This document shows, in pieces, positions 32,657 to 56,235 of a stretch of DNA of 64,000 nucleotides (position 1 is the first letter of the stretch; every line of letters starts with the position of its first letter). The notes under the pieces were generated by a model. That model worked only from the letters and a program-made list of their open reading frames with translations. It had not been told where the DNA came from and did no database searches. Both the position numbers and the translations under genes were made by a program. Origin of the DNA: Minisyncoccia bacterium (GTDB lineage: Bacteria; Patescibacteriota; Minisyncoccia; UBA6257; 2-01-FULL-56-20); contig JBEKRC010000003.1 of the NCBI GenBank assembly GCA_049997875.1, positions 183,885-247,884 of the forward strand, written 5' to 3'.

Positions 32657-32830
32657 TTTTCTTACTACTATTTTAGCAGAAAAGCGTTACTTCAAGGGCG
32701 AAGTTATCCACAGGGAGCTATTTGCATATCCACAGGGGGCTAAGGGCTTTCTTACTACCATTTTAACAGGAAAAGCGTTACTTCAAGGGCGAAGTTATCC
32801 ACAGGGAACTATTTGCATATCCACAGGGAG
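32657..32830. repeat. ~91-bp tandem direct repeat (2 units) in the intergenic promoter region
   Basis: The unit TTTCTTACTAC(T/C)ATTTTA(G/A)CAG(-/G)AAAAGCGTTACTTCAAGGGCGAAGTTATCCACAGGGA(G/A)CTATTTGCATATCCACAGGG is repeated at 32657 and 32748. Confidence 0.85.
32704..32825 (+). promoter_or_regulatory. cluster of four DnaA-box-like sites (2x TTATCCACAGGG, 2x ATATCCACAGGG)
   Basis: Perfect TTATCCACA at 32704 and 32795, ATATCCACA at 32726 and 32817. The pair sits 22 bp apart within each repeat unit, 55-185 bp upstream of the 30780..32645 start codon. Confidence 0.5.
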
Positions 32831-34033
32831 TTACTTGTACCTGATCGCCTCGAGCGGGCTAATAGACGATGCCCGTCGTGCAGGGAAAATGCCGGTAATA
32901 AAACCTACGATTGCCGAAAAAACAGTAATGAAACCCAAAAAAGTGAGCGGAAAACTGAAAAGCTGCACGGCCGTCCCCCCGTAATGCGCCGCAACAAGAT
33001 TGAGAATATAATTGATTATCAGCCCGCCGGCAATTCCCATGGACATCCCGACCATGCCGCCCAGAAATCCCACGACGACCGCCTCGGCAAGGAAAAGAAT
33101 CTGGATGTCCCCTGGCGAAGCGCCCAACGTTCTCATAACACCAATCTCGTTCGTTCGTTCGAGGAGCGTCACCGTCATTGTATTGAACATGCCGATGGCG
33201 GACACGACGAGCGCGATGCCGCCGAAGCAGGCCAGGACGATCTGCACCCCTTGGAAGATCTGGTTGGCCTGCTCCACGGTCTTCGAAAGCGCCGTCACAA
33301 TGAAACCCTGTTTTACAATCTCGTCCTGGATGGCGTTCAGCGCCCCGCTTCCCGTCGCGCGCACCTGGGCGCCATCATAGAATGGAATGCCTACCTGCGC
33401 CGCAAGGGTTGCGAGCGGAATCATAACGTAGATGGAGGAAACGTCGGTCGTCACCCCCTTCACCATAAAGCTCCCGTTCAGAACGACCTGGTCGGCCCCG
33501 GCGGCGTTGCTGGTTTGGACGAACACCCGGAACGTGACTGTCCTGCCCAGAATGTCGCGTGGATCGTTAATGCCGAAGAGTTTGAGAGCGGCGCTTGAGA
33601 GGATAACGCGCGTCTGATCGGCCGAGGCATCCGTAAAGGGTTCGCCCGCCGCCATCGCAATGCCGGCATACTTGAAATACGACGCGCGCACTCCTTGAAG
33701 ATCGGCATTCGCGCTCAACGCATCAATGGTAATGAGCGAGGAGAATTTGGCGAGCGGCGAAACATCCTGGACATTCGGGATGGTTTTGAAATTTTCTATT
33801 GCCGCATCCGTGAGCGTCACTGCCTGTGACGGCGGGTTGCTTACGCTCAGGCTTAACAGGGTGTCACCGAAAACAATTTTCTCAAGCAAGACGTTTTGTA
33901 GGCCGAAACCAAGTCCCACAAGCATGACGACGGCAGAGGTGCCGACGCCCATGCCGAGGATCGTAAGCCATGTCCTCGCAGGATTGGTCTTGAACATTCT
34001 CGTTGAAAGTTTTATGGCATCGCTTGCGCGCAT
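32831..34033 (-). CDS. MacB/FtsX-family ABC transporter permease
   Basis: 400 aa; N-terminal TM, large extracytoplasmic domain, C-terminal 3-TM FtsX module (RTNEIGVMRTLGAS motif). Confidence 0.85.
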   Translation of the reverse strand: MRASDAIKLSTRMFKTNPARTWLTILGMGVGTSAVVMLVGLGFGLQNVLLEKIVFGDTLLSLSVSNPPSQAVTLTDAAIENFKTIPNVQDVSPLAKFSSLITIDALSANADLQGVRASYFKYAGIAMAAGEPFTDASADQTRVILSSAALKLFGINDPRDILGRTVTFRVFVQTSNAAGADQVVLNGSFMVKGVTTDVSSIYVMIPLATLAAQVGIPFYDGAQVRATGSGALNAIQDEIVKQGFIVTALSKTVEQANQIFQGVQIVLACFGGIALVVSAIGMFNTMTVTLLERTNEIGVMRTLGASPGDIQILFLAEAVVVGFLGGMVGMSMGIAGGLIINYILNLVAAHYGGTAVQLFSFPLTFLGFITVFSAIVGFITGIFPARRASSISPLEAIRYK

Positions 34034-34035
34034 GG

Positions 34036-35346
34036 TCAGAGATAAAGGCCTTGGGCCAATAATTTTTCAAGATATCGCGCCGCGCCCCGCGCATGATCCG
34101 AATCGAGGCCGATGCCGCCTGCTTCAAGACTGGTTTGCAACCGGCGACGGAAGTCATCCTGCTCTATAAAACCGCGAATACGGAACTTAAGGAGCTCGTC
34201 AAACCGTTCCTTTTGCTCAGGAGACAGCGAAAGCCCGCACTCCCGGATGACATCTTCCCGCACGGTGGCAAGCCGCTCCGCCTGCTTGGGCGAGATGACC
34301 CGGGCCTCGAAATTATCCCGATAAACCCTAATTTCCCGAGCCTCTTTGAGTATGGTGTTTATCTTATCCTCAAAGAGCTTCGCCTGCTCCTTATGGATGC
34401 CTACTCCACCCTCCTCCATGTCCTTGATAAGTAAGGCCCTGAACCCCTCGTCGGTGAGCTGCCCCTCAAGGAACATCTCCACGGACTTCTCAAGATGCTG
34501 GATCTCTTCAAATCCGATGTCCTGCGTTAGGAAATTCACGATGCTTTTCACCCGGAGATCATCTGGCGTGGCGTAGGGATAGATGCGCGCGAGCTTCTCA
34601 ATCTCCGAAAGCACCGATGTCCCCGGGTCGGTCTGCTTGATCTGCTTCCGCTCCGGATTGATCACCTCGCGTTCCACCTGGCCGTCTTTCAGATAATAGA
34701 CGCGGTGCGCATAGGGCAAAAGTTTCGCGTCGTGCGTGACGAGAATCACGGTTTTCTCATCTTTCACGTTGATCTCCTCAAGCGTGCTCATGACCTGATC
34801 CGCCGAAACGCTGTCCAAGTTCCCCACCGGCTCATCGGCAAAGAGGATCTCCGGATTGTTCGCAAGCGAGCGAGCGACCGCGACGCGTTGCGATTGTCCA
34901 CCCGAGAGGTCCGTGGACTGCTTGTGCGCCTGTTGGTCCACGCCGAAGCGCGTGAGGAGCTGCATCCCCCGCTTGTTGCGCTCGGTCTTGCCCACACCCG
35001 CGAAAATGAGCGGCAGGGCAACATTATCAAGCACGGAAAGCGACGGGATAAGATTGAACGATTGATAGATGATGCCGACGATCTTGCGCTGGAAATGCGC
35101 CATCTGCTGCACGTTGTAGCGGTAGATATTGTCCCCCTTCACGATCACCTCGCCGGATGAAGGCGGGAGAATTCCAAGGAGCGAATAGAGAAGCGTTGAT
35201 TTTCCGCAACCGGACGGACCGAAGAGGACGATGTACTCGTTTGGATAGATATCCAGACTCTCGCCGCGCAGCGCGTAAAACTCGTTGGACTTGCCCTCGT
35301 TATAGACGACTCTCACATTCCTGACCTTGATGATAGGTTCGATCAT
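34036..35346 (-). CDS. ABC transporter ATP-binding protein (MacB/LolD-type) with ~200-aa C-terminal helical extension
   Basis: Walker A GPSGCGKST, signature LSGGQSQRVAVAR, Walker B ILFADEPVGNLD. The extension contains the internal repeats ...EEGGVGIHKEQAKLFE... and ...EAGGIGLDSDHARGAARYLE.... Confidence 0.88.
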   Translation of the reverse strand: MIEPIIKVRNVRVVYNEGKSNEFYALRGESLDIYPNEYIVLFGPSGCGKSTLLYSLLGILPPSSGEVIVKGDNIYRYNVQQMAHFQRKIVGIIYQSFNLIPSLSVLDNVALPLIFAGVGKTERNKRGMQLLTRFGVDQQAHKQSTDLSGGQSQRVAVARSLANNPEILFADEPVGNLDSVSADQVMSTLEEINVKDEKTVILVTHDAKLLPYAHRVYYLKDGQVEREVINPERKQIKQTDPGTSVLSEIEKLARIYPYATPDDLRVKSIVNFLTQDIGFEEIQHLEKSVEMFLEGQLTDEGFRALLIKDMEEGGVGIHKEQAKLFEDKINTILKEAREIRVYRDNFEARVISPKQAERLATVREDVIRECGLSLSPEQKERFDELLKFRIRGFIEQDDFRRRLQTSLEAGGIGLDSDHARGAARYLEKLLAQGLYL

Positions 35347-35351
35347 AAAAA

Positions 35352-36845: not shown

Positions 36846-36870
36846 ATACCTATAGTCTATCAGAGTCTTC

Positions 36871-39432: not shown

Positions 39433-39481
39433 GGGATATTACCTAAATTATAAAGTAATATCGCGGCATCCGCGACGGTCT

Positions 39482-41245
39482 TTATCTGATAACCACGTTG
39501 AACTGGCAGTAGTTCGGCAGGACGGTCCCGTCGGCCTGCCGTTCGTGATATACCACAACGACGGTATACGACCCCGGCACGGCGAACGGGGTGGTTTTAA
39601 GCACAATAGTGTCGCTGTCCGGCGCAGAGGTCGTAAGATACGAGCTTACGCCCGTGGGCAGGGAACCGACCGCGGCATCATACATGAATGCCGACGACGT
39701 TTTTGTTGAGGAAGGGATCTCTGGAGGGATAAGCTTCAGGAGAAACGCGACCGTGTCGCCGCGGGCGACGGAAGCTGAGAAGGGGTCCACCGAACATATT
39801 TGTTTGGCCCACGGACTGAAGACATTCTTGAACGCCTGTTCGGGCGACGGAATGTTTTGCGGAGGGGGCGCAGGGGGAGAGGGGCTCTCGCTCGCCGTTT
39901 CCGGCGCGGGAGACGGCATCACGTCGGTCGTATTATCAGGCGAATCAAGATAGTTCACTTCAACGCCCACGGAGTCAAGATAGACCTGCGGCGTGGAAGA
40001 CGAACCGAGCCCGACCAGGGCAACCTGCAGGTGGGAAAGTTCGTCCCATGAACGTATCGGAATAGGATAGCGCGCGACCTGCCAGTTCCCGGCATTCACA
40101 TTCACAACCGGCTGCCACGTGACCCCGTCCGTTGAATATTCAATGCTCAAGACGTCCTCCACGCTGCTTGAGGGCAACTCGATCGTCTTGAATATATCCG
40201 TGTCTACCGTCATTGTTCCGGTCGGCGCGGGAACGGTCGCCGTCGCAACGACGGCCGGAGGCGCGGACGAACTCTCGTCGGCATATGCGGCAGGGACCAA
40301 CTTCACCAACCACGAGGTTGGTGATGAATCCGTGTCCGTGGTGGAACTCTCGTCCGGGACCGACGCGGGAGCGGGGGCGGGCTCGGGGGCCGTGATGGAA
40401 TTCTCATTGGTATCGGTACTGGTCATATCGGTTGTGGAAGTAGGGGCAATGACAGTAGTGGTGGCGAGCGCCGCGGGGGTGGGTGTAGCCGGGAGCAAAT
40501 CCGTGGTTGTCGTGGTCGTCGTGGCCGGCACGGCACCCGTTCCGATATCCAATGTGCCCGATGCGGTTGTGCTTGTCCCCTCGTCAGGCGACGGTGGTTG
40601 GATTGAAGTTGAGGCCTCGTCCGGAGTCGGGGTCGGAGCCGGCACCACCCCCGTCACTCCCCCTCCGCCGCCGCCACTGCCCTCAACCGACGGAGAACTT
40701 GAAGCGGTTGATGATTGAGCGGGTACAACAGCCGCCGTCCCGCTTGCCGTGCCGCTCGCACTGCTCGCGACCGGAAATATAAAGTTCCAAGAAAGAATGA
40801 GATAAGCATTCTGAAAAGGTTTTGCCTGAAGCGATGCGATGTCCGCGTCACCCGAAAAATTGCCGCAGAATATTTGCGCCGTCCCTGTCCCGAAAAACGC
40901 TGAATTCGCGCCATTCCATGCCGACGGCGGCGAGCCGGGCGGCACATCCGGTTTCCCCAATGCATTCGCCACGTTTTGCCAATTCCCGAGACAGGAAGAA
41001 GGATAAAAATCCGCCGTGCTCGCGAATCCGATAAGAGCATAGCGAACAAATATCGGAACGACGATGAGCGTGAAAAGCAAAAAGAACGCCACCCTATGAT
41101 GCCGGATAAAACGGAGCACTTTTGTGCGGCTTATTTCAAAGCGCCAGACCTTTTCGCGCAACACGACAGTTTGCCCGGAGGAAGCGCGTCCGACATCGCT
41201 TACCGCGCGCTCTTTGCTATTCCCCTTTGAGCGCTTTGTCCACAT
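39482..41245 (-). CDS. membrane-anchored Thr/Pro/Ser-rich low-complexity protein with C-terminal globular domain
   Basis: N-terminal TM (VAFFLLFTLIVVPIFVRYALIGF), long TTTTTTT/GGGGGG/PAP linker, ~200-aa C-terminal domain. Start uncertain; placed at MMWTKRS to limit overlap with the upstream gene. Confidence 0.45.
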   Translation of the reverse strand: MWTKRSKGNSKERAVSDVGRASSGQTVVLREKVWRFEISRTKVLRFIRHHRVAFFLLFTLIVVPIFVRYALIGFASTADFYPSSCLGNWQNVANALGKPDVPPGSPPSAWNGANSAFFGTGTAQIFCGNFSGDADIASLQAKPFQNAYLILSWNFIFPVASSASGTASGTAAVVPAQSSTASSSPSVEGSGGGGGGVTGVVPAPTPTPDEASTSIQPPSPDEGTSTTASGTLDIGTGAVPATTTTTTTDLLPATPTPAALATTTVIAPTSTTDMTSTDTNENSITAPEPAPAPASVPDESSTTDTDSSPTSWLVKLVPAAYADESSSAPPAVVATATVPAPTGTMTVDTDIFKTIELPSSSVEDVLSIEYSTDGVTWQPVVNVNAGNWQVARYPIPIRSWDELSHLQVALVGLGSSSTPQVYLDSVGVEVNYLDSPDNTTDVMPSPAPETASESPSPPAPPPQNIPSPEQAFKNVFSPWAKQICSVDPFSASVARGDTVAFLLKLIPPEIPSSTKTSSAFMYDAAVGSLPTGVSSYLTTSAPDSDTIVLKTTPFAVPGSYTVVVVYHERQADGTVLPNYCQFNVVIR

Positions 41246-43004
41246 CATCAACTTCTTTTTGGATGGTGCTTTCGGAAACCGTGAGTGCGTTCCGCAGGGC
41301 ATCAAGCACATGTTCCGGTTCAAGCTTCTCCGCGCCTTGCGCCTGGGCGGCGCCGCCATCCATTTGGTTCACCTTTTCCTCAACCTCCTCGCGCAATGCC
41401 TCAAAGACCGCCTCCGTCTTTTCTCGTATTTCTTCGTTCTCGCGCTTCGCGAGCGCAAACTGCATATCAAGGATCTTCTTCCGGTAAAAGCCGAAGCCCA
41501 CAAGGCCCACGATCATGAAGAACAGGGCCACGATGACGGCCCACCCGAAGCGGTCAAGGAACGGTGCCGCGATCACGTTGATCTGCGTTTTGTCGGTGGA
41601 AGTGGCCGCCGCGCCCTGCGTTGTCACCATGGTGACGCCAAGATCGTAGTTCCCGGTCGGCAATCCGCCCTCAAGCGCAAAGAGCCAGTGGCCCGTCTGG
41701 TCTGCGACCATCTTCCCCTCTGTGACCACCTTTCCGCTGTCCAAAATGTCCACGGTTACGTTCGCATTGCTGTCGGCGATACCCTCAAGGACAATGGGCG
41801 ACCGCTCAATGATCGTCGCCGGGAAATTCGTGATCTTTGGCATCGCGATGCCCGGGATCTCGAACGCGGCGTGCGCCTCGGCGAAGTTCCCTGCCTTGTC
41901 CACGGCACGGATCACGACCGTGTGTTTCCCGGGCAGGAGGGGCGGCGCCGTGTAAACACCGTTCTGGATATCGGAAAGGGCAACGACCGTGGAACTCACG
42001 CCGTCGAAGTTCGCTTCATAGTGGTCAATGCCGGAAACCGTATCCGTCGCATTGAAAGAAAGCAGGGTGAGCCCGTTCAGACCGCCGCCCGGCTGCGCGT
42101 TCACCGTGAAAGGCTGGGGCGGCGCGAGATCGATCTGAACCTGGTAGTGAACGGGGTCGCTCCAGTTCCCGAGTGAATCCTCAAAGCGCACATGGAAGTA
42201 CGATACGCCTTCGTGAATGCCGGAGTATTGCTTTGACGATATGAGGCCTTCGGAAGAACGCTTTGGGTACGTGGTAGGACTCTTGTCAAATGCCGTACTC
42301 ACGCCGGCAACATCGGAGGTGAGCTGCCACGTGAAGGTGGGGCTGTCGTTCGCGTACCACTTTTGCTGATCGGGATGCGTGGGCGACGAGACGGCGATGG
42401 AAACGATGAACGGCGTCTCTGCGGGAGTTGAGGCGCCTCCGCTGGATGGAGGTTTCTCGGACGGCGATGTAGAAGCAGACACAGACGCAGGCGCAGTGCC
42501 CGTACCCGAACCGCCGATCGCGAAGCTCGCCGTCCCCGTGCCGCCCAAGACATTTGTTCCCTGCCCATCCGCCGCAAGCGACGACGCCGAAAGGAACTTA
42601 AGGCCCGCGGTGCCCGCGGCCTGCGCTTTGAACGTAATGCTCATTATGGTGCCGGCATTTCCGGCATACGCGCTCGTGACGCCGCCGCTGAAGTTCACCG
42701 TGCCGTCGGAGTTTGAGTACGAAGGATCTGCAACCCAAAGATTGAAAACAGAATTGTCCTTTGAGACGCTTTGCACCGCAAGGAGCGATGGATCAAAACT
42801 GATCTTCCCATCCGCGGCGTTTATGCCCACCCCGCCGCCGCTGTCCACGAGCACGTTCACCGTGAACGTGCTCCCTACGGCGTATGAGCCGCTTGAAGGA
42901 CCGAATGAGAGCGAAGCGCCGGCCGCAAGCACGGGCGCCGCGGGAACCACGAATCCTACCAACAAAGAGGTTGTCCCCACGGCGATGGCTGCGCCCCACC
43001 TCAT
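41217..43004 (-). CDS. cohesin-domain surface protein with C-terminal TM anchor and cytoplasmic coiled-coil tail
   Basis: Signal peptide; SLSFGPSSGSYAVGSTFTVNVLVDSGGGVGINAADGKISFDPSLLAVQSV...GTIMSITFKAQAAG (cohesin pattern); Ig-like repeats; TM GWAVIVALFFMIVGLVGFGFY followed by a charged helical tail. Confidence 0.6.
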   Translation of the reverse strand: MRWGAAIAVGTTSLLVGFVVPAAPVLAAGASLSFGPSSGSYAVGSTFTVNVLVDSGGGVGINAADGKISFDPSLLAVQSVSKDNSVFNLWVADPSYSNSDGTVNFSGGVTSAYAGNAGTIMSITFKAQAAGTAGLKFLSASSLAADGQGTNVLGGTGTASFAIGGSGTGTAPASVSASTSPSEKPPSSGGASTPAETPFIVSIAVSSPTHPDQQKWYANDSPTFTWQLTSDVAGVSTAFDKSPTTYPKRSSEGLISSKQYSGIHEGVSYFHVRFEDSLGNWSDPVHYQVQIDLAPPQPFTVNAQPGGGLNGLTLLSFNATDTVSGIDHYEANFDGVSSTVVALSDIQNGVYTAPPLLPGKHTVVIRAVDKAGNFAEAHAAFEIPGIAMPKITNFPATIIERSPIVLEGIADSNANVTVDILDSGKVVTEGKMVADQTGHWLFALEGGLPTGNYDLGVTMVTTQGAAATSTDKTQINVIAAPFLDRFGWAVIVALFFMIVGLVGFGFYRKKILDMQFALAKRENEEIREKTEAVFEALREEVEEKVNQMDGGAAQAQGAEKLEPEHVLDALRNALTVSESTIQKEVDDVDKALKGE

Positions 43005-43579
43005 ACCTTTGGTGCTTCGTTCTTCGATTCCCGGACGGGAAGCTTTTTCCCCTCCCCAAGCTTCTTTATGGGAAGAACAACAATGAGCACGCCGTGCTGC
43101 AAAAACGTTTCCGCTTCCCCGCCATCAAAAGGCGCAGGAAGGTACACTTTGCGGTAGAGGGGATCCCACTTGATCTCCTGTTTCACGAACCTGCCCTTTT
43201 CCGGTTCCGCTCCAGGCTGCGCCCCGTGGGGAGGTGGAACGTCCGGCCTCTTCTGTTTCGCTTGGATAAGAAGCGTGTTGGATTCCTCATCCGCCGTCAC
43301 ATCAAAATCTTCAGGGAAAACTCCGCCCGCCTGTACAAAAACCACCATCCGCGTGTCGGATTGGAAAAGATCGACCGTTAAAGAATCCGTACCTTCGGGT
43401 GCCGAATCGGGCGCTCCCGCCGGATCACCCGGAGGGTCCCCCTTTGGCGGATCGGCGGTCTTTGCCCCCGCTGCGTTGTACGAAACGCCTCTCGCCGCAA
43501 CCGACGCTGCCCCTTTTGCAGTCGCTGCGGCATCCTCCTTCTGCAACTTCGTCGATAGCTTTTCGTAAAAGGATGCCAT
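43001..43579 (-). CDS. Hsp20/alpha-crystallin-domain protein with Pro/Ala-rich N-terminal region
   Basis: LTVDLFQSDTRMVVFVQAGGVFPEDFDVTADEESNTLLIQAK...GVLIVVLPIK parallels the Hsp20 at 27078. Confidence 0.6.
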   Translation of the reverse strand: MASFYEKLSTKLQKEDAAATAKGAASVAARGVSYNAAGAKTADPPKGDPPGDPAGAPDSAPEGTDSLTVDLFQSDTRMVVFVQAGGVFPEDFDVTADEESNTLLIQAKQKRPDVPPPHGAQPGAEPEKGRFVKQEIKWDPLYRKVYLPAPFDGGEAETFLQHGVLIVVLPIKKLGEGKKLPVRESKNEAPKV

Positions 43580-43630
43580 GTGATTTCACTTTCAGTATAC
43601 CAAACCGAAACGGTTCTTGTATCCCCAGGA

Positions 43631-45319
43631 TCAACCCGTCCAATGGGAAAGCATAATACTGAGATCGGGGAGATCCACGACGCCATCATGATTCAGATCG
43701 CCGGGCGGCCAGTCTTGTCCCCAGTGAAAAATCAGGACGGAAAAATCCACAAGGTTTACCTTGCCGTCTCCGTTAAAATCCGGATTCCCGGTTTTCGGCA
43801 TCGGTTCTTGCCCCACGCCGAGGTATGTAATGCCCGAAAAATCGCTCACCTGCAGTCCCGGCACAAACGACCGCGCCTTGACCTCGTAGGTATCCACGGC
43901 AAAACCGGTCGTATCCACCGCGTAGGACCAGCGGCCGTCCTCTCCGGCTCCGGCGGTGACCTCCACGGGACTTTTGGCGCCTTGCTGGCTCGTCACCCAA
44001 ATCTCCACGGTGGACGACGGCTCGCTCTCACCCGAGATCGTGACCTTTTTGCCCGGCGCCACCGTGCTTGTCGCGAGCGAAACGCTCGGAGGCATCACGA
44101 GTCCCGTCACGCTGTTCGCCGTTCCGGCGACGATCGTCATCGTGAAGGTTTGCTCCGAGATGCGCTGTCCGTTGCCATCGTTGATGTAGAGCGTGAACGT
44201 GTATACTCCTTGCGCGAGCGAAGGAATATTGACCGTAAAATCTCCGTTCCCGTCCGACGTCGTGCGCTGCGGGACGGCCGTTCCGTCGCGGAGAACCAAT
44301 ATCTCGCTTGACGGCAATGCCACGCCATGGATGACAAGGGAAGGCGACGACGGGCCGGGCGGATACGGCGCCCCGCCCCCGCCCCCAGCGCCTCCGGCAG
44401 TCCCCCCGCTGCTTCCTACTCCCGTCGGACTGCCGGCCGTAAACGAAATCACATAATCGCTCTGGTTCTTATTGCCCGCGAAATCCACGCATCGAACATA
44501 GTAGGTATAGGTGACTCCCTGTGCGATACCGGTCACCGTGAATGTATGGAAGGTTCCCACCGAATTATCCGCAGTAAGATTTGTCATCGCATCATAGCTC
44601 ACGCCCGGTGTCGTCGCATAGCGGCAGAGCGCGTACGTATCCGTATCAAAGGAAGCTACCACTGCCAAAACATTCGATGGGATCGTGCCCGACGGCATCC
44701 CATTCGAGAGCACGGGAGGATTTACCCTGTTGGTATTCACTTCAACCCCCACGGCGGGAAGTATCACGACCATCGCCGCCCCGTAATCGATTGGCGCGCT
44801 CGCCACACTGTAGGTATTGATGAAAATACGGTAGGAAGCCGTCGAGGACGGATTCGTGATCTGATATGTCCCCATGGGAGCGTTTGTGCCCAAAAGGAGG
44901 CGCGCATGGGCGCCCGCCGGGATGCCGTTCCCCGAAGAAAGCGTGATCGCGATGGGTCCGGTAAGGGGCGTAATGGCCACGCCGTCGCTCACTGCATCCG
45001 GTGCTGCCGCGAGCGGCCTTTCCGTAAAGCCGGAGGTCGGCGACGAAGTGGAATAGGCAAGGTCCATGTCGCTGTAACTGAACGAAGGGTCAATCGCGAA
45101 CGGCGTGCCTTCAAAACTTATGACGATCTCCCCCGACGCGGGAACGGCATCCGGAACACTAAAAAGAACGGTGTGGTTCGCCGGGAACGACGGCCTTGAG
45201 TCCGTGATCGTGTCGCTCACGAAACTGAGTTGCGACGCGATCGCGTGTGACGCCACAGCGCCAAAAACGAGCGCCGCGCATACGGGACCAATGGAACACA
45301 ACTGGGATCGGAGCTTCAC
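43631..45319 (-). CDS. secreted FN3-containing protein with C-terminal dockerin-like domain
   Basis: Signal peptide. N-terminal domain similar to that of 46909..48060 (LSFVSDTITDSRPSFPANHTV vs LTAVSDTLSDSRPGWQANHTI). Middle region homologous to 28590..29741. C-terminus DFNGDGKVNLVDFSVLIFHWG...DLNHDGVVDLPDLSIMLSHWTG. Confidence 0.6.
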   Translation of the reverse strand: MKLRSQLCSIGPVCAALVFGAVASHAIASQLSFVSDTITDSRPSFPANHTVLFSVPDAVPASGEIVISFEGTPFAIDPSFSYSDMDLAYSTSSPTSGFTERPLAAAPDAVSDGVAITPLTGPIAITLSSGNGIPAGAHARLLLGTNAPMGTYQITNPSSTASYRIFINTYSVASAPIDYGAAMVVILPAVGVEVNTNRVNPPVLSNGMPSGTIPSNVLAVVASFDTDTYALCRYATTPGVSYDAMTNLTADNSVGTFHTFTVTGIAQGVTYTYYVRCVDFAGNKNQSDYVISFTAGSPTGVGSSGGTAGGAGGGGGAPYPPGPSSPSLVIHGVALPSSEILVLRDGTAVPQRTTSDGNGDFTVNIPSLAQGVYTFTLYINDGNGQRISEQTFTMTIVAGTANSVTGLVMPPSVSLATSTVAPGKKVTISGESEPSSTVEIWVTSQQGAKSPVEVTAGAGEDGRWSYAVDTTGFAVDTYEVKARSFVPGLQVSDFSGITYLGVGQEPMPKTGNPDFNGDGKVNLVDFSVLIFHWGQDWPPGDLNHDGVVDLPDLSIMLSHWTG

Positions 45320-45339
45320 CTCTCAATTTTACCACGCGC

Positions 45340-45738
45340 TCACGAATGTATGGCCGGGGCGGAGGGCAGATCGGGGTCTCCCGTTTTTTTATGGAAACGG
45401 CGCCAGTCAAGATAGAAGTTCAGGGCGACGAGGACCGCAAGGACCGCTACGGCAACCGTGAGATAGCCGAGGGAAGAATCCCCTGCCGGCGAACTCGCGG
45501 CCGCGGTTGTCGAAGCAAGCGCCGCTTCCTGCGCGTTGAGGTAGGCCGCTTTTTGGCTCAAGGCATCATTCAGGGTATTGTACGGGTTGGGCAGCACGCC
45601 CACGCTCACGCCAACCTGGGCCAAGAGCGTCTTCCCGAAGAACGCGAGCTTCACATGCGAAGCAGTAACAAAGACCACGAGACCCATGAGCACGATGAGC
45701 CCAAAGAGTCCCGCTTTTTTGATCGTCGGTTTAACCAA
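45340..45738 (-). CDS. small two-TM membrane protein (hypothetical; CscD-position analog)
   Basis: 132 aa, TM helices at both ends. Confidence 0.4.
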   Translation of the reverse strand: MVKPTIKKAGLFGLIVLMGLVVFVTASHVKLAFFGKTLLAQVGVSVGVLPNPYNTLNDALSQKAAYLNAQEAALASTTAAASSPAGDSSLGYLTVAVAVLAVLVALNFYLDWRRFHKKTGDPDLPSAPAIHS

Positions 45739-46828: not shown

Positions 46829-46908
46829 AGTGTTATCTTACCATTAGGGAACGGCCCGAAGCAAGCACTCCGACGAGACTGCTTCGTTCGAAATTGCGCG
46901 TGAGGGTG

Positions 46909-48060
46909 CTAGAACACCGGGGTCGCCACATAGATTAGGTTGTTCGTATAGTCGTTCGCTGCTGCCTGCAGGGAACCGATCTCAATGCGCATCGCCACCT
47001 TTGCGGCACCAACGTTCTGCGTCGTGCCGTCCGACGGCCCGGTCCATGCAAAGACCGTTAGGGTGGAGGTCGGATTGAAGCTGCCGGCGTAGAACGGCGT
47101 GCTCGTACCGAAGTTCAACGTGCCGCTTGCATCGTCGCTTGTGATCCCGAAGTGCCCATACGTAAGCGGCTGGTTGATGATGTTCGTGGGCGGGGTCCAG
47201 GGACTCGGAGTGGAGGTGGCGTTGCCGTTGCTGAAGAGGTGGATGGTGTTACCCTTGTTGCTTGTCAGATCCTGGTCCTCGTGGATGGTCACGGCGAAAC
47301 CATTGGAGGCGTTGGTGGTCACGTTCAGCTGCTGGCCGAGCTCATTGTGCGCGCCGGGAGATATCGTGCCGAACGGGAGCGAGGTTGACGCCGACGTGCC
47401 TGTTGTCGTCGCGCCGTTGAGGAGCGCAGTGGTTGTCGAAAGGCTCGACACCGTGAAGGTGAATGTGGTCGCGATCGCGGCGGTCACGTTCACGCCGTTC
47501 ACGATGGCCACGCGCGTGTCAGCCGAGTTCCCTTGGCTCCCGCCGATGCGGATGATGTAGGAACCGGTGCTCGTGGGGTTCGTAATCTTGTTGTTCCCGA
47601 CGATAAACTTCAACGTGCCGGTCGGAACGGTATTGGACGAACAAACCGTGAAGGTGAGCGTGCTCGTCACCGCGCTCGTGAGCTGGATGTTGTTTCCGCT
47701 ACCGGGACAGGACGAGGTGGCAAGCGTAGCCCCCGTAAGCGCAATATCGGTAGAGGTGACGTTCTGCACCCCCAAAAAGGCGTTCGTCGTTGGGTCAAAG
47801 GTAATCTGGATAGTCTGGGTCGCGAGCGTGCTGCTTGGATTCGTATACTGGATCGTATGGTTGGCTTGCCAGCCAGGTCGCGAATCGCTTAGGGTATCGC
47901 TTACGGCGGTAAGGCTTGCTGCGTGGGCCTGTGAAGGGAAAAAGTTCTGGAGTCCGATGGTCCATGCCAAGATGCTTATTAAAAGCCCTGCGGCGATAGC
48001 CACGCCGAGATCCCGTTTTGCATTTTTCAAATACTTGCCTTCAGAAAACATTTGTAACAA
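46909..48060 (-). CDS. secreted T/S-rich surface protein with class-B C-terminal module (WxL-like hypothesis)
   Basis: Signal peptide; C-terminal ~150 aa FGTISPGAHNELGQQLNVTTNASNGFAV...TVFAWTGPSDG...DYTNNLIYVATPVF, shared with 50453..51778. Confidence 0.5.
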   Translation of the reverse strand: MLQMFSEGKYLKNAKRDLGVAIAAGLLISILAWTIGLQNFFPSQAHAASLTAVSDTLSDSRPGWQANHTIQYTNPSSTLATQTIQITFDPTTNAFLGVQNVTSTDIALTGATLATSSCPGSGNNIQLTSAVTSTLTFTVCSSNTVPTGTLKFIVGNNKITNPTSTGSYIIRIGGSQGNSADTRVAIVNGVNVTAAIATTFTFTVSSLSTTTALLNGATTTGTSASTSLPFGTISPGAHNELGQQLNVTTNASNGFAVTIHEDQDLTSNKGNTIHLFSNGNATSTPSPWTPPTNIINQPLTYGHFGITSDDASGTLNFGTSTPFYAGSFNPTSTLTVFAWTGPSDGTTQNVGAAKVAMRIEIGSLQAAANDYTNNLIYVATPVF

Positions 48061-48100
48061 ATTTTAAATTTATATGTTTATACGACCTTGCAATAATCTT

Positions 48101-48175
48101 TTATCCAGTATAACACAACAAGACATCCACACTTCAATACCCAGTTATCCACAGGCATTCCATTCGCTATCTACA
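48101..48175 (+). promoter_or_regulatory. cluster of DnaA-box-like sites (TTATCCAGT, ACATCCACA, TTATCCACAGG, CTATCTACA)
   Basis: Perfect TTATCCACA at 48145-48153 plus three near-matches, same orientation, immediately upstream of the 46909..48060 promoter (TTGCAA at 48090). Confidence 0.45.
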
Positions 48176-48244
48176 TCAAAACCTGAACCGGGTCAGGGCC
48201 GTCACCTGACAAAGAACGAAACTACCCTCCCGAGAACGCCCTCC

Positions 48245-51778: not shown

Positions 51779-51779
51779 G

Positions 51780-52286
51780 TTATTGGCTTGTCTGTGACTG
51801 CTCGATCGTCTTCACGATGACGCTGTCGCTCCGCAGGGTCTCCCAAAACATTATCTGCGAGAGCGGAACCACCATCTCGCTCGTAGGTCCATGGATCTCG
51901 TTCCCGAGCTTCACAAGCTTGAGCTGCGACTGGTCCTCGCCGTTCAACTGTTCACTCGGCTGCGCAATCTGAAGATAGTACACGTCGCGCAACGTGATCG
52001 TTGCGGCGAAGGGCCAATGCTGGAAATGCCCGAAGTAGACCTGATTGTTCGTGAGGAACACCGCACGCCATGCCGTGTCGTGGGCGGTGGCATACCATGC
52101 GCCGAGCGCAATGACGAGCGCGATAATTGCAATGACGACGACCGTGTTTCTCTTGTTCCATCGCGATTTCAGGCGCGGTTCGGAAACAACGTTCTCGTTT
52201 TCTTCCCGAAGATTGAGGGTGCTAGGCATAAAATTTGATGATAAAAATTTACGGCGACCTTTACGGCGCGGTGCCGGCTGCGGCAT
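51780..52286 (-). CDS. small single-TM membrane protein (hypothetical)
   Basis: 168 aa; basic N-terminus, one TM (VVVIAIIALVIALGAWY), extracytoplasmic C-terminal domain. Confidence 0.4.
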   Translation of the reverse strand: MPQPAPRRKGRRKFLSSNFMPSTLNLREENENVVSEPRLKSRWNKRNTVVVIAIIALVIALGAWYATAHDTAWRAVFLTNNQVYFGHFQHWPFAATITLRDVYYLQIAQPSEQLNGEDQSQLKLVKLGNEIHGPTSEMVVPLSQIMFWETLRSDSVIVKTIEQSQTSQ

Positions 52287-53553
52287 CGGACGAAGTAGCG
52301 CCGGGTGAGACCGCGTCGGGCGTGGGCGTAACGGACGCCGCGGAAGTGCTGCCTGGAGTGTCGCTTGTGGACGAGGCGCCCGCGTTCACGCTCGCATCCG
52401 CACCCGTGTCCGTTCCCGCATTCATGTTCGCACCGGTGTTTGCATCCGTACTCGTGCCCGTGTCGGCGCTCGCGCTCGCACTGGTATTTGCGCCCGCACC
52501 GACACTGCTCGTCGCAACGCTTCCGATGTCCGCGCTGTCCGTTGTGCTCGTGGTCGTGTCGGAGACAGTCGCATCAGAGGTGGTCGCATCATTCGATGCG
52601 CCCACAGTGTCCGTATCTCCATCGCCTGCCGCCGCATTGCCGGCCGCCGCAGCACTCATTGTGGTAACGTCCGGCGTCCCGCCCCCGAACGCGACCGGCA
52701 TCGATTGCTCCACAACGGTCGACGACCCAGCGGCATAAGTGCTGATGATAAGCCACGAGAAAGACACGGGGATGGATTGTGACCGGACCGTACCGACATG
52801 GAAGCCCGCGCCGTCGCTCCTCTGCGTCACCGCAAGCGGGACTTCGGTGGGCGAAGTAGGCGTTACGATAACCTCCGAAGAAGAAGTGAGGAGGGTGTTA
52901 GGTACGAAAACATCTGTCACTCCGGCGCCGATCTCTCCATCTCCCGACATCTGATTCGCCCCTTTCGGCACGGCAATTGAGCCGCCGGGAAGCACCGCGA
53001 ACATCTTTGAGAAAATCTGCATGGCTGCCACGACGGACGTCTTCACTGCGTCCACGGCCGAGGTCACGATCCCGAAGAACTGCTGCAGCACCGAATCAAG
53101 CCAAGAGTCGTCGCTCGGCGGGGCGGCGGCGAGGGAAGAAGTGTCCATGGTGACCGTAACGTCAGTCAATGGGATAGGCGTAGAGAAGACAACCGTCGCG
53201 GAGGCCGTCGATGGGGATGTTATGGCTGCTGTCGCGCTCCCCGGCACCGTCCCGCCATCCACGGCGTCGACGACGAACGTCCCTCCCATCCGATCGCCCG
53301 CGGGCACCGTGATAGCGTATGCGTAAGAACCGTTCACACAGCTCGGATTGCTGCTTCCCCAAATGGAACCGTCGGACGTGCGGCGGATAACAACGAGCAC
53401 GAACCGCGCGGAGCAATTCCCGGAAACGGAGAGTTTCCCCGTTCCGGGATCAAAGACGACGTTGCTGCTCGCCGCGCGCGCCGCGCTCCCCCACGCAAGC
53501 AAGGCGAGGGAGATAACGCCGACGAAACTTACAAAAAAATATCTTTTGTTCAT
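52261..53553 (-). CDS. secreted low-complexity T/S/A/D-rich protein (hypothetical)
   Basis: Signal peptide; extreme compositional bias in the C-terminal half. Confidence 0.4.
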   Translation of the reverse strand: MNKRYFFVSFVGVISLALLAWGSAARAASSNVVFDPGTGKLSVSGNCSARFVLVVIRRTSDGSIWGSSNPSCVNGSYAYAITVPAGDRMGGTFVVDAVDGGTVPGSATAAITSPSTASATVVFSTPIPLTDVTVTMDTSSLAAAPPSDDSWLDSVLQQFFGIVTSAVDAVKTSVVAAMQIFSKMFAVLPGGSIAVPKGANQMSGDGEIGAGVTDVFVPNTLLTSSSEVIVTPTSPTEVPLAVTQRSDGAGFHVGTVRSQSIPVSFSWLIISTYAAGSSTVVEQSMPVAFGGGTPDVTTMSAAAAGNAAAGDGDTDTVGASNDATTSDATVSDTTTSTTDSADIGSVATSSVGAGANTSASASADTGTSTDANTGANMNAGTDTGADASVNAGASSTSDTPGSTSAASVTPTPDAVSPGATSSDAAAGTAP

Positions 53554-53558
53554 GGTCG

Positions 53559-55916
53559 TTAATCGTGGCTGCTAAAATAGACGTACGCGATCCTGTGAAC
53601 GGCGGCGGTCCCCGTAAGCGTGGTAACCGCATCCGTGATGCCGAGCTGCGTTGCCCCCGTTGCGATGTTCGTCGTCTTCGGCGTAGTTACATAGCTCCCC
53701 CCGTTCGTCGCAACCTGGCACAACATCTGCCCGGCCGTCGACATATCAAGAATGATGTCGTAGTAGGTGCTTGTCGTAACCGTCACACCGGTATTCGTAT
53801 AGCTTGCGGTCGTCCCGTCCCCTGAACCGCACTGCCAAGTCGTATCTCCCGCGCTGGTGGAATAGCGAAGACCAAAGAATACCGTTGACGTCGCGCCGGC
53901 AGCGACATCAGATCCCGTAATCGCAGCCGAGTTCAGCGCGACCCAGATGCGCCGGCTCGTAATGGTGGTATCGGTCCTGATCCTTGTCGCGAACCGCGGC
54001 GTATAGCGCGGTTGGGTCTGATTGAATGTCTGCGTCAATCCCCCTACGGAACCGTTCGATGCGGCGCTTGTCCATTGCACATAATAATCCTCCGCCTGCG
54101 CACTGGCCGCAGCGGTGCCGTTCACGGTAGGAATCCCCATATCAACCGCGGTGAACACCGTGGCCGCCGTACCGGTCGGCGCCCAATATCCCCACTGATT
54201 GGTACCGAAGTCCTGTTGCCACCCTATAGGGGTCGGGATGCAGTTCGTCCAGGCACCCCCTTGGTAACAACGGAAGCTTCCCGTGCTTGAGCTGTAATAC
54301 ATCGCGCCGTTGAAGCCGGTCGGGTCCCCGGCATCGGATTTCACGTCAAGCCCCAAAAGCGTCGGGACAGATCCGGCCGCCCCGTTCCGCCCGATCTTTA
54401 TCTTGTTGTTCAGCGTATCGGCGGCAAGAAGCGTTATCGTCCCGCTCGCATTCTGCAAAGCAAACGTGGTGGACGTATCGCTGGAGGGAAGAAAAACCGC
54501 ATTCCCGACGCTGTTAACATAGAAAACCGTGGATGACGCATCGTTCACTTGAATGGCGTTCCCGGAGCCAAAGTTACTCACGATCAATGCGGCCCCCGAG
54601 ACGTTCGCACCCGCAGTGATCGCGACCGTGCTCGTCGCCTGCGTTGAGGTCGGGGCGTTCACGATGGAAAGCGCTATGCCGGTTCCGTTCTGGCTCAATG
54701 TTAATCCCGTTGAAGCCGCATTTTGCACGATAGACATCCCCGCGGTCACGGACGGCGCGTTCAGCGTTTTATTGTTCAATGTCTGCGAGTAGTTCACGAG
54801 CGCCACCGTGTCCGTTGCCGTGGCGAAGTTCGGGATCGTGAGCGCCCCGACGACCGTCGGGTTCCAACTCAACGTCCCGGTCGCGCCCGTTCCCTGGAAG
54901 ACAAATTGGCTGGAGGTCGCCGTGGCCTGCAACATGCTCGCCGTCACGCGGTTTGCGATCGTGAGTATGCCGGACGAGGCGATCGTATTGCTCGCGGAGA
55001 AGAACTGTATTGCGCCCGTGCCCGTCCCGCCCTGCAGCGTAAGCGTGTTCGTTCCGGTCGCATTGATCTGCGGGTTCGCATCGCCGAGGACGAGGGCCCC
55101 CGAGGCGAGCACCGGTATCTCCGTGCCCGTCGCATTCTGCGACGGCGCGAATCCTCCCACCGTCGCCGCGTTGATGGCATACCCGGACGCCACGATCCGC
55201 TCGCGCGGGCTCAAGGCCTCAAACGTCGCGTTCGTGCAGCTTGAACTCACTTGCGCCGCCACTTCCACGTTCAGATACGCCGTGTCGTTGCTCTGAAAAT
55301 TGAAGGTCAACGGATCCCCTCCCGCGCTTACGTCACCCACGCCGACATCAAAGACGCCGTTCGCCACGGTAGCGGTCATCGCGGAGGCGGTGGTGCTCGG
55401 CCAGAGCTTGGTGCCCCCCGAAAGAGAATCATAAATGGAGAAACGGAAGCAGTATGGCGTACCCGATCCCCCCAAAAGATTGCCATTGGAGTCAAAAAGC
55501 CTGCCTTGATAGCTCAGGACGAGAGGTACCCCCGTGGCCGCCTTAGCAATCGCGATGGTGATAAAGGCGTATATGAGGAACGCAATAAAAAGGAAAAGGA
55601 GTACTACAAGGACATAAATGATCCTTCTCGCAAGGCGCAATATCGCCTCGGTTGATGAGTTAGCAACCCACCAGGTTCGAAGCTTTTCCCGCACCCATTC
55701 CTTAAAGGCAGGGATTGCGCGTTCCGCCCCGCTTTTCGCCATATATTCCCGAATGGCCTCCTCGGTCGTCACCCAAGCCACATTCAGGTAGATCTGTTTG
55801 CCCTGCAATTTCCCCTTCCGGATAAGCTGACCCAAATAATCCGGCGCATAGCCCGAAAGCTTCGCCGCTTCCTTAAGAGTGATATATTTAACCCCTTTGT
55901 CGTGTCTTATAGCCAT
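53559..55916 (-). CDS. 785-aa protein: N-terminal excisionase-type HTH, single TM, large extracellular T/S/N/G-rich beta-repeat domain
   Basis: VKYITLKEAAKLSGYAPDYLGQLIRKGKLQGKQI (HTH_17-like, same type as the 20171 protein). TM IIYVLVVLLFLFIAFLIYAFITIAIA. ~640 aa of G/T/S/N-rich repeats (TGTNTLTLQGGTGTGAIQF...). Confidence 0.55.
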   Translation of the reverse strand: MAIRHDKGVKYITLKEAAKLSGYAPDYLGQLIRKGKLQGKQIYLNVAWVTTEEAIREYMAKSGAERAIPAFKEWVREKLRTWWVANSSTEAILRLARRIIYVLVVLLFLFIAFLIYAFITIAIAKAATGVPLVLSYQGRLFDSNGNLLGGSGTPYCFRFSIYDSLSGGTKLWPSTTASAMTATVANGVFDVGVGDVSAGGDPLTFNFQSNDTAYLNVEVAAQVSSSCTNATFEALSPRERIVASGYAINAATVGGFAPSQNATGTEIPVLASGALVLGDANPQINATGTNTLTLQGGTGTGAIQFFSASNTIASSGILTIANRVTASMLQATATSSQFVFQGTGATGTLSWNPTVVGALTIPNFATATDTVALVNYSQTLNNKTLNAPSVTAGMSIVQNAASTGLTLSQNGTGIALSIVNAPTSTQATSTVAITAGANVSGAALIVSNFGSGNAIQVNDASSTVFYVNSVGNAVFLPSSDTSTTFALQNASGTITLLAADTLNNKIKIGRNGAAGSVPTLLGLDVKSDAGDPTGFNGAMYYSSSTGSFRCYQGGAWTNCIPTPIGWQQDFGTNQWGYWAPTGTAATVFTAVDMGIPTVNGTAAASAQAEDYYVQWTSAASNGSVGGLTQTFNQTQPRYTPRFATRIRTDTTITSRRIWVALNSAAITGSDVAAGATSTVFFGLRYSTSAGDTTWQCGSGDGTTASYTNTGVTVTTSTYYDIILDMSTAGQMLCQVATNGGSYVTTPKTTNIATGATQLGITDAVTTLTGTAAVHRIAYVYFSSHD

Positions 55917-55954
55917 CTCGAGGGTCGATATTTAACAAATCTTGGGTATCGAGA

Positions 55955-55983
55955 TTATATACTCATTATATAAAACCTTGCAA
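55955..55983 (-). promoter_or_regulatory. sigma70-like promoter for 53559..55916 (TTGCAA-16nt-TATAAT on the minus strand)
   Basis: Reverse complement reads TTGCAAGGTTTTATATAATGAGTATAATCTC. Confidence 0.5.
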
Positions 55984-56041
55984 TCAGGATATGTGCATAA
56001 AATGTGAAGAACGTTATAAAATATGCCCAAAATAAGGACAA

Positions 56042-56102
56042 TTTATCCACATATATTGGCTTATCCACATATCCACATCCACTAATTTTTCCTCTCATCC
56101 AC
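56042..56102 (+). promoter_or_regulatory. cluster of DnaA-box-like sites in a divergent promoter region (2x TTATCCACA, ATATCCACA, TCATCCACG), adjacent AT-rich stretch
   Basis: TTATCCACA at 56042 and 56060, ATATCCACA at 56068, TCATCCACG at 56094. Located 60-120 bp upstream of the minus-strand promoter and ~100 bp upstream of the plus-strand promoter. Confidence 0.5.
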
Positions 56103-56168
56103 GCCAATTAGTCTTCCCTTCTGCGCAGAAATGGATCCCGCCTTTGCCCAAAAAGCTGCCTTATGGGC

Positions 56169-56198: not shown

Positions 56199-56235
56199 AC
56201 AAACGTTGTAAGTGTTCTTAGTAGGTTTCGCCTGT

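Follow-up and report, generated by a model that had tools for sequence, protein, structure and literature searches.

DnaA-box words as probable conserved operators of a surface-apparatus regulon in Patescibacteria

The E. coli nrdAB promoter carries two high-affinity DnaA boxes and one DnaA-ATP-specific box, and is activated at low and repressed at high DnaA-ATP; in the published model, RNA polymerase is aided while occupancy is low, and repression sets in once the DnaA-ATP-specific site is filled (PMC8203912). In Caulobacter crescentus, the initiator directly controls cell-cycle progression and polar surface organelle genes. The PodJ protein is required for pili and holdfast. Caulobacter DnaA binds the gcrA, ftsZ and podJ promoters in vitro (PMC8203912). 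Consensus boxes also occur in multi-box clusters away from the origin, as at datA and DARS in E. coli and the DBCs of B. subtilis, which are defined by cluster density and act on DnaA availability. A different architecture is that of ToxR, CadC and BcrR, in which an N-terminal DNA-binding domain in the cytoplasm is connected by a single membrane span to an extracytoplasmic domain, and whose operators lie upstream of their own genes. Patescibacteria (CPR) represent a large share of bacterial diversity and live attached to host cells. To our knowledge, almost nothing is known about their gene regulation, and a search of the literature found no paper tying DnaA boxes or any promoter motif to it.

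We analysed a window of 64,000 nucleotides from a peat Patescibacterium (Minisyncoccia), in which a preliminary description had reported DnaA-box-like words in three intergenic regions. An exact-word search of the window recovered five perfect copies of the DnaA-box consensus TTATCCACA (relaxed form TTWTNCACA), all on the plus strand at 32704, 32795, 48145, 56043 and 56061, against 0.27 expected; none of 100 shuffles contained at least five. All five lie in the three intergenic regions of the earlier description (GC 0.41-0.42), directly 5′ of the minus-strand genes 30780-32645, 46909-48060 and 53559-55916, each heading a surface-protein operon. A one-mismatch search added ATATCCACA at 32726, 32817 and 56069, again on the plus strand. 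Several perfect or one-mismatch boxes per region had been claimed, and this is true of regions 1 and 3; region 2 has one perfect box (48145), and the other boxes listed for it (48101, 48123 and 48167) are each two bases off the consensus. Nor do all boxes share one orientation, as had been thought, since the one-mismatch box TTATGCACA at 55992-56000, which also fits the relaxed consensus, sits on the minus strand beside the operon-3 core promoter. Elsewhere in the window, one-mismatch matches (about 14, where 7.7 are expected and shuffles gave at most 15) lie nearly all in coding sequence and are close to chance.

A sixth perfect box was found in the same genome just outside the window, where it heads a type IV pilin operon. 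It precedes TGTTATAAT by 32 nt and the first prepilin gene by 86 bp; there are two prepilin genes, and those for PilB, PilC and PilM come after them. Over about 82 kb of this genome there are six perfect boxes, every one at the promoter of a surface structure. In the left flank, one gene for a surface protein (SpaA/Ice_binding domains), which lies beside an ECF sigma factor, is without a box.

In region 1, Tandem Repeats Finder confirmed the previously noticed tandem duplication at 32658-32828 (period 91, 1.9 copies, 95% matches). Each 91-bp copy comprises a box pair and a promoter-like segment, so that operon 1 has two tandem box-plus-promoter modules. In the proximal module, the perfect box (32704-32712, plus strand; TGTGGATAA in gene orientation) is followed, in the direction of the gene, by N8, CTTGAAG and a predicted extended -10 TGCTAAAAT (32670-32678), and the one-mismatch box ATATCCACA (32726-32734, plus strand) lies 22 bp from it. 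The distal, duplicated module has its perfect box at 32795-32803, its extended -10 TGTTAAAAT at 32760-32768 and its ATATCCACA box at 32817-32825, 22 bp from the perfect one, both boxes being on the plus strand. The duplication is identical in other assemblies of the same population that span it, and two contigs break within it. The first gene of operon 1 (30780-32645, minus strand) encodes a 621-aa Thr/Ser-rich protein with a signal anchor, for which no Pfam family was found; a homologue with 35% identity in the related locus L023 has a perfect box upstream.

In region 2, the perfect box (box 1, 48145-48153, plus strand) is located 7 bp upstream of a -35-like TTGAAG (48132-48137). Box 2 (48123-48131, plus strand), which reads TGTGGATGT in gene orientation with two mismatches, comes 22 bp after box 1 and fills the 19-bp spacer between TTGAAG and the extended -10. 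The clusters had been placed upstream of the promoters, which does not apply in region 2, where this weak box lies within the promoter spacer. Its position is kept in 13 related promoters with the consensus TGTnnAnAA. The predicted extended -10, TGTTATACT (48107-48115, minus strand), is conserved as TGTTATGnTAnAAT in the promoter alignment, and we infer the transcription start of operon 2 from the sequence. The first gene (46909 to 48051-48060, minus strand) encodes a 380-aa secreted protein of an unnamed family with an SDTLSDSRPG motif. The downstream genes of the operon, which extend to 32831, encode Big_13, cohesin, dockerin, LamG and fn3 domains and an ABC/FtsX pair.

Region 3 contains a distal cluster (56043-56103, plus strand) made up of two perfect boxes (56043 and 56061), one box with a single mismatch (56069) and two degenerate ATCCAC cores (56077 and 56097). 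The cluster is 60-120 bp upstream of the -35 of operon 3, in the intergenic region between this operon and a divergently read RRM gene. The predicted core promoter (55954-55983, minus strand) consists of TTGCAA (55978-55983) and overlapping TATAAT/TATATAAT -10 candidates (55954-55961 and 55965-55970). The proximal box TTATGCACA, in the opposite orientation, is located 21 nt upstream of the TATAAT at 55965-55970. In four related loci, a box lies likewise 21-22 nt from TATAAT, being TTATCCACA in L009, L010 and L012 and the one-mismatch TTATCCCCA in L008, and these four also share the 5′ leader AATATCGACCC(C)TCGAGAT. The first gene of operon 3 (53559-55916, minus strand) codes for a protein of 785 aa, in which an HTH_17-like cytoplasmic head is joined through a transmembrane helix to a fibre-like ectodomain; the operon continues with five more genes, down to 48245.

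The register between boxes and promoters was established from an alignment of 17 operon-2/operon-1-type promoters, a spacing histogram and the operon-3 orthologues, all promoter elements being predicted ones. The strong box ends 28-33 nt before the -10 hexamer, or 21-22 nt in one class, which corresponds to a position of about -45 to -55, beside or over the -35 position, and either orientation occurs. Promoters of the operon-2 type have a further, degenerate box exactly 22 bp (two helical turns) after the strong one, filling a conserved over-long 19-bp spacer. Most related promoters carry one or two boxes only, in precise register to a -35-like hexamer and the -10. As at the E. coli nrdAB and dnaA promoters, consensus boxes are found beside or over the predicted core promoter, and a strong box appears to be combined with a presumably weaker one. 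In contrast to those promoters, the register here consists of a 22-bp box spacing with the weak box inside the conserved 19-bp spacer. The sites do not fit a direct-repeat operator of the OmpR/PhoB type: box-to-box spacings are 22, 18 and 8 bp instead of following a 10-11 bp periodicity, many promoters have a single box, and both orientations are used. No response-regulator domain was detected among the proteins of the window, although a response regulator may be encoded elsewhere.

We extended the analysis to 38 non-redundant sources from diverse Patescibacteria (563,658 bp, 7.3% intergenic). Matches to the 8-mer were intergenic in 28 of 40 cases, and those in coding sequence were at chance level. 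Unbiased ranking of intergenic words in these sources put TGTGGAT, TGTGGATA and TGTGGATAA on top, and the most widespread 7-, 8- and 9-mers that are not AT-rich were all pieces of CTGTGGATAA. In 837 kb we counted 51 boxes, whereas 300 permuted words with the composition of the box gave 6.25 on average and 28 at most. Among 54 homologues of the operon-2 first gene, 16 have a perfect 9-mer within 250 bp upstream (about 0.1 expected) and 33 have a box with at most one mismatch in the upstream region (2.9 expected). The core is still present in homologous promoters whose proteins share as little as about 30% identity, and the 9-mer is conserved across lineages whose GC content ranges from 37 to 62%. 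The regions have in common a core of 9-12 bp alone, their flanking sequences being different. From 48 unique sites we derived the consensus c-TGTGGATAA-v-T, in which the T two bases past the 9-mer is present in 37.

The same 9-mer precedes orthologues and distant homologues across Patescibacteria at fixed promoter distances, which strongly supports the earlier suggestion of a shared regulon operator. These boxes are very probably conserved operators of a Patescibacteria surface-apparatus regulon, whose predicted members are adhesive-fibre-like proteins, secreted Thr/Ser-rich proteins and type IV pilins. Since surface-fibre, surface-protein and pilin operons share the box, these genes would be co-regulated. 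The sequence data show the motif with its enrichment, conservation and promoter register, and from them we infer in which direction the promoters respond, where transcription starts and which protein binds. The targets differ from those of the E. coli nrdAB and dnaA promoters, which serve replication and nucleotide genes, and the regulon appears to be conserved superphylum-wide. Across classes of the group, one short DNA word would mark the promoters from which fibre-like adhesins, type IV pilins and secreted surface proteins are expressed, and candidate host-attachment genes could be listed from sequence in any CPR genome. It also leads to a testable hypothesis, namely that the master switch is either DnaA or a membrane-tethered HTH protein.

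That the pattern reflects chance, a dispersed repeat or the remnant of a mobile element has a negligible probability: the tandem duplication in region 1 does by itself double two boxes, but the enrichment in the window and in relatives, the lack of shared flanks and the persistence of the core in distantly homologous promoters all argue against it. It is very unlikely that the clusters serve to titrate or recycle DnaA, in the manner of datA, DARS and the B. subtilis clusters, and so control replication initiation rather than transcription nearby. Regions 1 and 3 do resemble such multi-box consensus clusters away from the origin; region 1 has four boxes, cluster 3 has five box-like sites within 60 bp in one orientation, and clusters of at least three boxes are scarce, with six in about 0.9 Mb of related loci, two of them in this window. 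Relatives, however, have mostly single boxes in a fixed promoter register, a precision that pure titration does not need, and the boxes associate with a class of genes and not with a chromosomal position.

The preliminary description had also proposed that 55917-56110 could be an oriC-type element, which we consider extremely unlikely. The intergenic region of 451 bp does combine a dense cluster (three boxes with at most one mismatch and two degenerate cores in 56043-56103) with an adjoining AT-rich stretch (GC 0.41). Nevertheless, the cumulative GC skew falls monotonically through the window without a turning point at 56 kb and is still falling at 64 kb, which would place the origin to the right of the window. 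Gene direction does not switch either, the fibre operon on the left and the ftsA-ftsZ and pilus genes on the right being read the same way, and dnaA and dnaN are absent from the window and from about 10 kb on either side. Tandem Repeats Finder gave no AT-rich repeat in 55917-56110. The AT-rich stretch itself corresponds to promoter elements and a 5′ leader that align with orthologous promoters of relatives, where this promoter carries one or two boxes and is flanked by different genes, for HSP20 or DHO dehydrogenase. The boxes follow genes, and none of the three clusters was retained as a replication origin.

Which protein reads the operators is a separate question. Our leading candidate for the reader is DnaA, in the role of transcription factor that it has at nrdAB and dnaAp in E. 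coli; we rate the full statement, surface-regulon operators read by DnaA, as an even chance. The strong box would be occupied at most DnaA levels and would aid RNA polymerase, whereas the weak spacer box would be filled only at high DnaA-ATP and would shut the promoter, so that the replication state of the cell would govern when attachment structures are made. In favour of DnaA, the box word is the exact universal DnaA-box consensus, and its flanks, c-TGTGGATAA-v-T, equal the E. coli oriC context CTGTGGATAACT. The E. coli oriC sequence containing CCCTGTGGATAACA and CTGTGGATAACT was matched at 100% in E. coli chromosomes; these two contexts, matched by the box flanks here, are those of boxes R1 and R4. 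Single asymmetric boxes that may face either way are consistent with a monomeric binder, and one 9-mer kept over such a range of GC contents suggests a very conserved one. DnaA-box-like sequences have been reported at an origin in Peregrinibacteria (PMC4736985). No dnaA signature was found in the approximately 130 related loci examined. While DnaA binding is established at the E. coli promoters, it is a proposal here. The likeness to Caulobacter is that of a candidate DnaA regulon, in another lineage and with another gene set, and the ftsA-ftsZ promoter region of the window is without a box. If DnaA is the reader, a minimal genome would have re-used its most conserved DNA-binding protein, tying surface remodelling to the replication cycle.

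A serious alternative, although on balance we think it rather unlikely, is that Patescibacteria read the boxes with a dedicated transcription factor in place of DnaA. That the boxes are confined to promoters of surface structures is as compatible with such a regulator as with DnaA, and the strongly conserved T two bases past the 9-mer, for which we know of no established DnaA preference, extends the motif beyond the classical DnaA box and may hint at a different protein. Among the candidates, the most concrete is the head of the fibre protein encoded at 53559-55916, together with its paralogues; a conserved soluble factor encoded elsewhere is another possible reader. In the 785-aa protein, the N-terminal HTH_17-like segment is followed by basic residues, then by a transmembrane helix and an ectodomain of 660 aa, which weakly matches the N-terminal domain of Bdellovibrio mosaic adhesive trimer fibres. 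This recalls the organization of ToxR, CadC and BcrR, and the protein might act as a membrane-tethered one-component regulator in the style of ToxR and CadC, sensing what the extracellular fibre touches and autoregulating the surface regulon. Like their operators, boxes precede the gene for the HTH head itself, here and in L008, L009, L010, L012 and L014. Its putative recognition segment, SGYxPDYLGQLIRKGKL, is near-invariant in nine homologues from loci of 43-62% GC, as a conserved target site would explain. Excisionase/BldC-type winged-helix proteins use asymmetric sites in direct-repeat arrays, and sites of this kind are found here. In contrast to ToxR and CadC, the head is HTH_17/excisionase-like and not a winged helix of the OmpR type, its DNA binding is putative, and the outside part is a fibre-like domain. 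The HTH_17 match (E = 4.5e-4) is below the Pfam cut-off, and a single-sequence structure model of the domain (pLDDT 48.5) was too poor for use. The frequency of boxes before paralogues without the HTH head (6 of 13) is about equal to that before paralogues with it (4 of 9), a result that is neutral with respect to action in trans. The window encodes no other transcription factor. With a dedicated reader, full identity to the DnaA consensus, flanks included, would be a coincidence, and domain IV of DnaA should in any case bind the perfect TTATCCACA tightly where its specificity is conserved.

The two readers may also be combined, the HTH head of the fibre protein being a contact sensor that binds the same 9-mer as DnaA, so that host contact and DnaA would compete or cooperate at one operator. 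We regard this as improbable; were it so, attachment of the episymbiont would be directly coupled both to expression of the attachment apparatus (fibres and pili) and to replication licensing. The frequency of boxes before paralogues without the HTH head (6 of 13) is about equal to that before paralogues with it (4 of 9), a result that is neutral with respect to action in trans.

The box, the 9-mer cTGTGGATAAnT, is the exact DnaA-box consensus. Five perfect copies, TTATCCACA, occur in the window at 32704, 32795, 48145, 56043 and 56061, all on the plus strand, against an expectation of 0.27; none of 100 dinucleotide-preserving shuffles attained five. With one mismatch allowed, 23 matches were found versus 7.7 expected. 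The one-mismatch excess corresponds to ATATCCACA at 32726, 32817 and 56069 and to the reversed TTATGCACA at 55992, the other matches of this class being dispersed over coding sequence, about as often as expected by chance. The preliminary description had placed box-bearing regions ahead of three surface operons, and these counts bear it out. Its claim of a single box orientation holds for all five perfect copies, but not for the reversed site at 55992. Window genes lie almost all on the minus strand, so that the boxes read TGTGGATAA in gene orientation, 5′ of the three operons.

All three operons run on the minus strand. Operon 1, beginning at 32645, is headed by the gene for a Thr/Ser-rich protein of 621 aa. 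In operon 2, which begins at about 48051, the gene for a secreted protein of 380 aa is followed by genes with Big_13, cohesin, dockerin, LamG and fn3 domains and finally by an ABC/FtsX pair. The first gene of operon 3, starting at 55916, encodes a 785-aa protein and precedes five genes without known families. An NCBI protein identical to this 785-aa product is assigned to a Minisyncoccia bacterium (Patescibacteria/CPR). The presence of cohesin and dockerin domains in neighbouring surface-operon proteins (41217-45319 and 27601-28602, both minus strand) suggests a cellulosome-style, plug-and-socket assembly of a surface complex. At the boundary between housekeeping and surface genes, two GH130 mannoside phosphorylase-like genes and a GH18 gene stand in a row (21759-26134, minus strand).

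The tandem duplication reported earlier for the operon-1 region was recovered by Tandem Repeats Finder as a 91-bp unit present in 1.9 copies at 32658-32828. Several peat metagenomes contain assemblies of the same population, and the duplication is unchanged in those that span it. Two short-read contigs (L048 and L049) have their position 1 exactly within the repeat; by breaking assemblies, it could hide copy-number variation between strains.

A sixth perfect copy of TTATCCACA was found 8.5 kb past the right end of the window (1329-1337 of the right-flank locus L128, about 72,500 in window coordinates). It lies 32 nt ahead of TGTTATAAT and 86 bp ahead of two prepilin (N_methyl) genes; PilB, PilC and PilM come next. 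Over about 82 kb of this genome, the six perfect boxes are thus all located at four surface-structure promoters, and none was found at the other intergenic regions, about 20 in number. In the left flank, the gene for a SpaA/Ice_binding surface protein beside an ECF sigma factor lacks a box; surface proteins are thus not all part of the regulon. This gene is grouped with those of a PAS protein and the ECF-type sigma factor (L131, 18650-21500), and the boxless group looks like a second, separate circuit for surface-protein control.

The box was also found at the promoters of orthologues of the 785-aa gene (63-68% protein identity) and of the first gene of operon 2, the latter located downstream of the 785-aa orthologues with gene order kept. 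With the 785-aa family alignment as query and one genome per species, 37 loci were recovered, their GC contents ranging over 37-67%; they belong to Paceibacteria, Saccharibacteria, Nomurabacteria and others. The 38 non-redundant sources amount to 563,658 bp, of which 7.3% is intergenic by a crude ORF call. When intergenic 7-, 8- and 9-mers were ranked by number of loci, blind to the motif, TGTGGAT, TGTGGATA and TGTGGATAA were the top words that are not AT-rich. In the 38 sources, 28 of the 40 matches to the 8-mer are intergenic (20 of 32 without the window) and the 12 coding matches are at chance level. The 9-mer occurs 24 times in total (20 intergenic regions, 13 sources), and by our own reading 17 of the 20 boxed regions precede genes of the three first-gene families of the window operons, one of them a homologue of the operon-1 first gene with 35% identity. 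A metagenome scan with the operon-2 family provided 78 further loci, 54 of them with sufficient upstream sequence. Within 250 bp upstream, 16 of these 54 carry a perfect 9-mer and 33 a box with at most one mismatch, where a uniform model predicts about 0.1 and 2.9, respectively. The box occurs 51 times in 837 kb, as compared to a mean of 6.25 and a maximum of 28 for 300 permuted words of the same composition. In the relative L012 (3409-3700), the stop codon of a gene resembling tyrosyl-tRNA synthetase is immediately followed by a perfect, GG-extended box; the roughly 290 bp beyond this box have no convincing ORF and may represent a small RNA that was left unannotated, or else a long leader.

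We infer transcription starts from consensus promoter elements. Alignment of 17 operon-2-type and operon-1-type promoters revealed a common order: box 1 (TGTGGATAA), 6-8 nt, a -35-like cCTTGaa, box 2 and TGTTATGnTAnAAT, a predicted extended -10. Box 2 (TGTnnAnAA) starts 22 bp after box 1, directly abuts the -35-like hexamer and occupies the spacer to the -10, which is 19 nt long in ten of the 17 promoters by our count. The operon-1 box pair is likewise 22 bp apart, one step farther upstream, and the whole module is duplicated. Just 3′ of the predicted operon-1 -10 elements are TAG-like runs, TAGTAGTAAG proximal and GGTAGTAAG distal (32661-32669 and 32752-32759), which resemble short DnaA-trio (5′-TAG-3′) repeats; with only 2-3 units, they are probably due to chance. 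In operon-3 orthologues, the box is reversed and ends 21-22 nt before TATAAT, at the place expected for a -35. Operon 3 of the window likewise carries TTATGCACA at 55992-56000, 21 nt from TATAAT (55965-55970); its promoter region has in addition a -35, TTGCAA, and five box-like sites clustered farther away. When every site is considered, the first good -10 most often follows the box at 28-33 nt, whichever way the box faces, and in a second class at 20-22 nt. The flanking bases are non-random: of 48 unique sites, 26 have C immediately before the box and 37 have T two bases after it. Boxes are all upstream of predicted -10 elements and should therefore act as DNA and not as RNA; no known RNA family was detected in the window with Rfam.

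The 9-mer thus recurs before homologous genes, in a fixed promoter register, across Patescibacteria, which upholds the operator part of the shared regulon proposed earlier, and we consider the cis-element and its regulon to be solid. The boxes are a short asymmetric site that may face either way, stands alone or in arrays of one orientation, keeps its distance from the promoter elements, is conserved over the superphylum and is attached to one gene class; judged from these sequence features, they are most likely the operator of a conserved DNA-binding protein. DnaA is the leading candidate binder, given the general conservation of its domain IV. The extended forms CTGTGGATAACT and CCCTGTGGATAACA are the contexts of boxes R4 and R1 of E. 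coli oriC, respectively; the oriC sequence used for this comparison matches E. coli chromosomes at 100%. Promoters controlled by DnaA boxes are of a known kind, DnaA being an established transcription factor. Caulobacter DnaA binds the promoters of gcrA, ftsZ and podJ, and control of nrdAB combines two nucleotide-independent boxes with one DnaA-ATP-specific box, low DnaA-ATP leading to activation and high DnaA-ATP to repression (PMC8203912). The layout of operon-2 promoters, a strong box followed by a weak one, invites a model of this sort, in which low DnaA-ATP would switch them on and high DnaA-ATP off. The literature searched contains no description of consensus boxes that, in a conserved register of their own, mark fibre, surface-protein and pilin promoters throughout a superphylum. 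The dnaA signatures DHTTV and GKTHL were absent from all loci retrieved, and no dnaA gene was found in about 10 kb beyond each window end, where the right flank contains pilus genes and the left flank genes for purine synthesis, for an ECF sigma factor and for a surface protein.

As the main alternative, the box could be read by the 785-aa protein itself, acting as a membrane-tethered regulator of the ToxR type. Its N-terminal segment is HTH_17-like (E = 4.5e-4, below the Pfam cut-off) and nearly invariant in nine homologues. This cytoplasmic head leads, through a basic region and one transmembrane helix, into a large ectodomain of 660 aa. Boxes are about equally common before paralogues without the HTH head, which does not discriminate between this reading and DnaA. 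A single-sequence AlphaFold model of the head (pLDDT 48.5) was too poor for a fold search, and sequence searches of the PDB gave no significant match for the head or the operon-2 family. The ectodomain weakly matches the N-domain of the Bdellovibrio mosaic adhesive trimer fibre (NF053851, E = 6e-4, far below cut-off), and some paralogues end in a Peptidase_S74 domain (PF13884), the chaperone domain of tail spikes. In the MFD assemblies L010 and L012 and in L014, a small ORF of its own encodes the head; its overlap with the fibre ORF in L010 and L012 may be a frameshift artefact.

An oriC at the third cluster, also suggested earlier, can be considered excluded for practical purposes. Cumulative GC skew keeps falling from one end of the window to the other, without a minimum at 56 kb, which places the origin to the right of the window; operons on either side of the cluster are co-directional, and neither dnaA nor dnaN is present in the window or about 10 kb to each side. 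The AT-rich stretch noted beside this cluster does exist, but as promoter and leader common to orthologues that have one or two boxes and different neighbours, not as an origin element. The only statement on a CPR origin in the literature searched concerns DnaA-box-like sequences near that of a Peregrinibacterium (PMC4736985). As a minor possibility, the two dense clusters could serve for titration in the manner of datA. A sigma-factor promoter element was ruled out because the box occurs in both orientations, and a DNA-uptake sequence because copies are few, intergenic and promoter-linked, with coding DNA at chance. An invertible promoter was also rejected, since the -10 and leader keep the gene orientation and the box alone varies between orthologues. 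Three clustered boxes in L025 (1035-1239) fall inside an ORF of 1153 aa and were set aside as a chance occurrence.

Two further features of the region concern other genes. An RRM-type RNA-binding protein gene (56173-56706, plus strand) carries a promoter close to the consensus (TTGCAA-N18-TATAAT, 56173-56202); its leader, about 165 nt long, matches no Rfam family. Window positions 1-16976 and the left flank (L131, 11493-17011) together encode a near-complete de novo purine pathway: PurF, PurD, PurN, PurL, PurM, PurE, PurC, PurB, PurH, PurA, IMP dehydrogenase and PRPP synthetase. Patescibacteria are generally described as devoid of nucleotide synthesis, and such a pathway is unusual for them.
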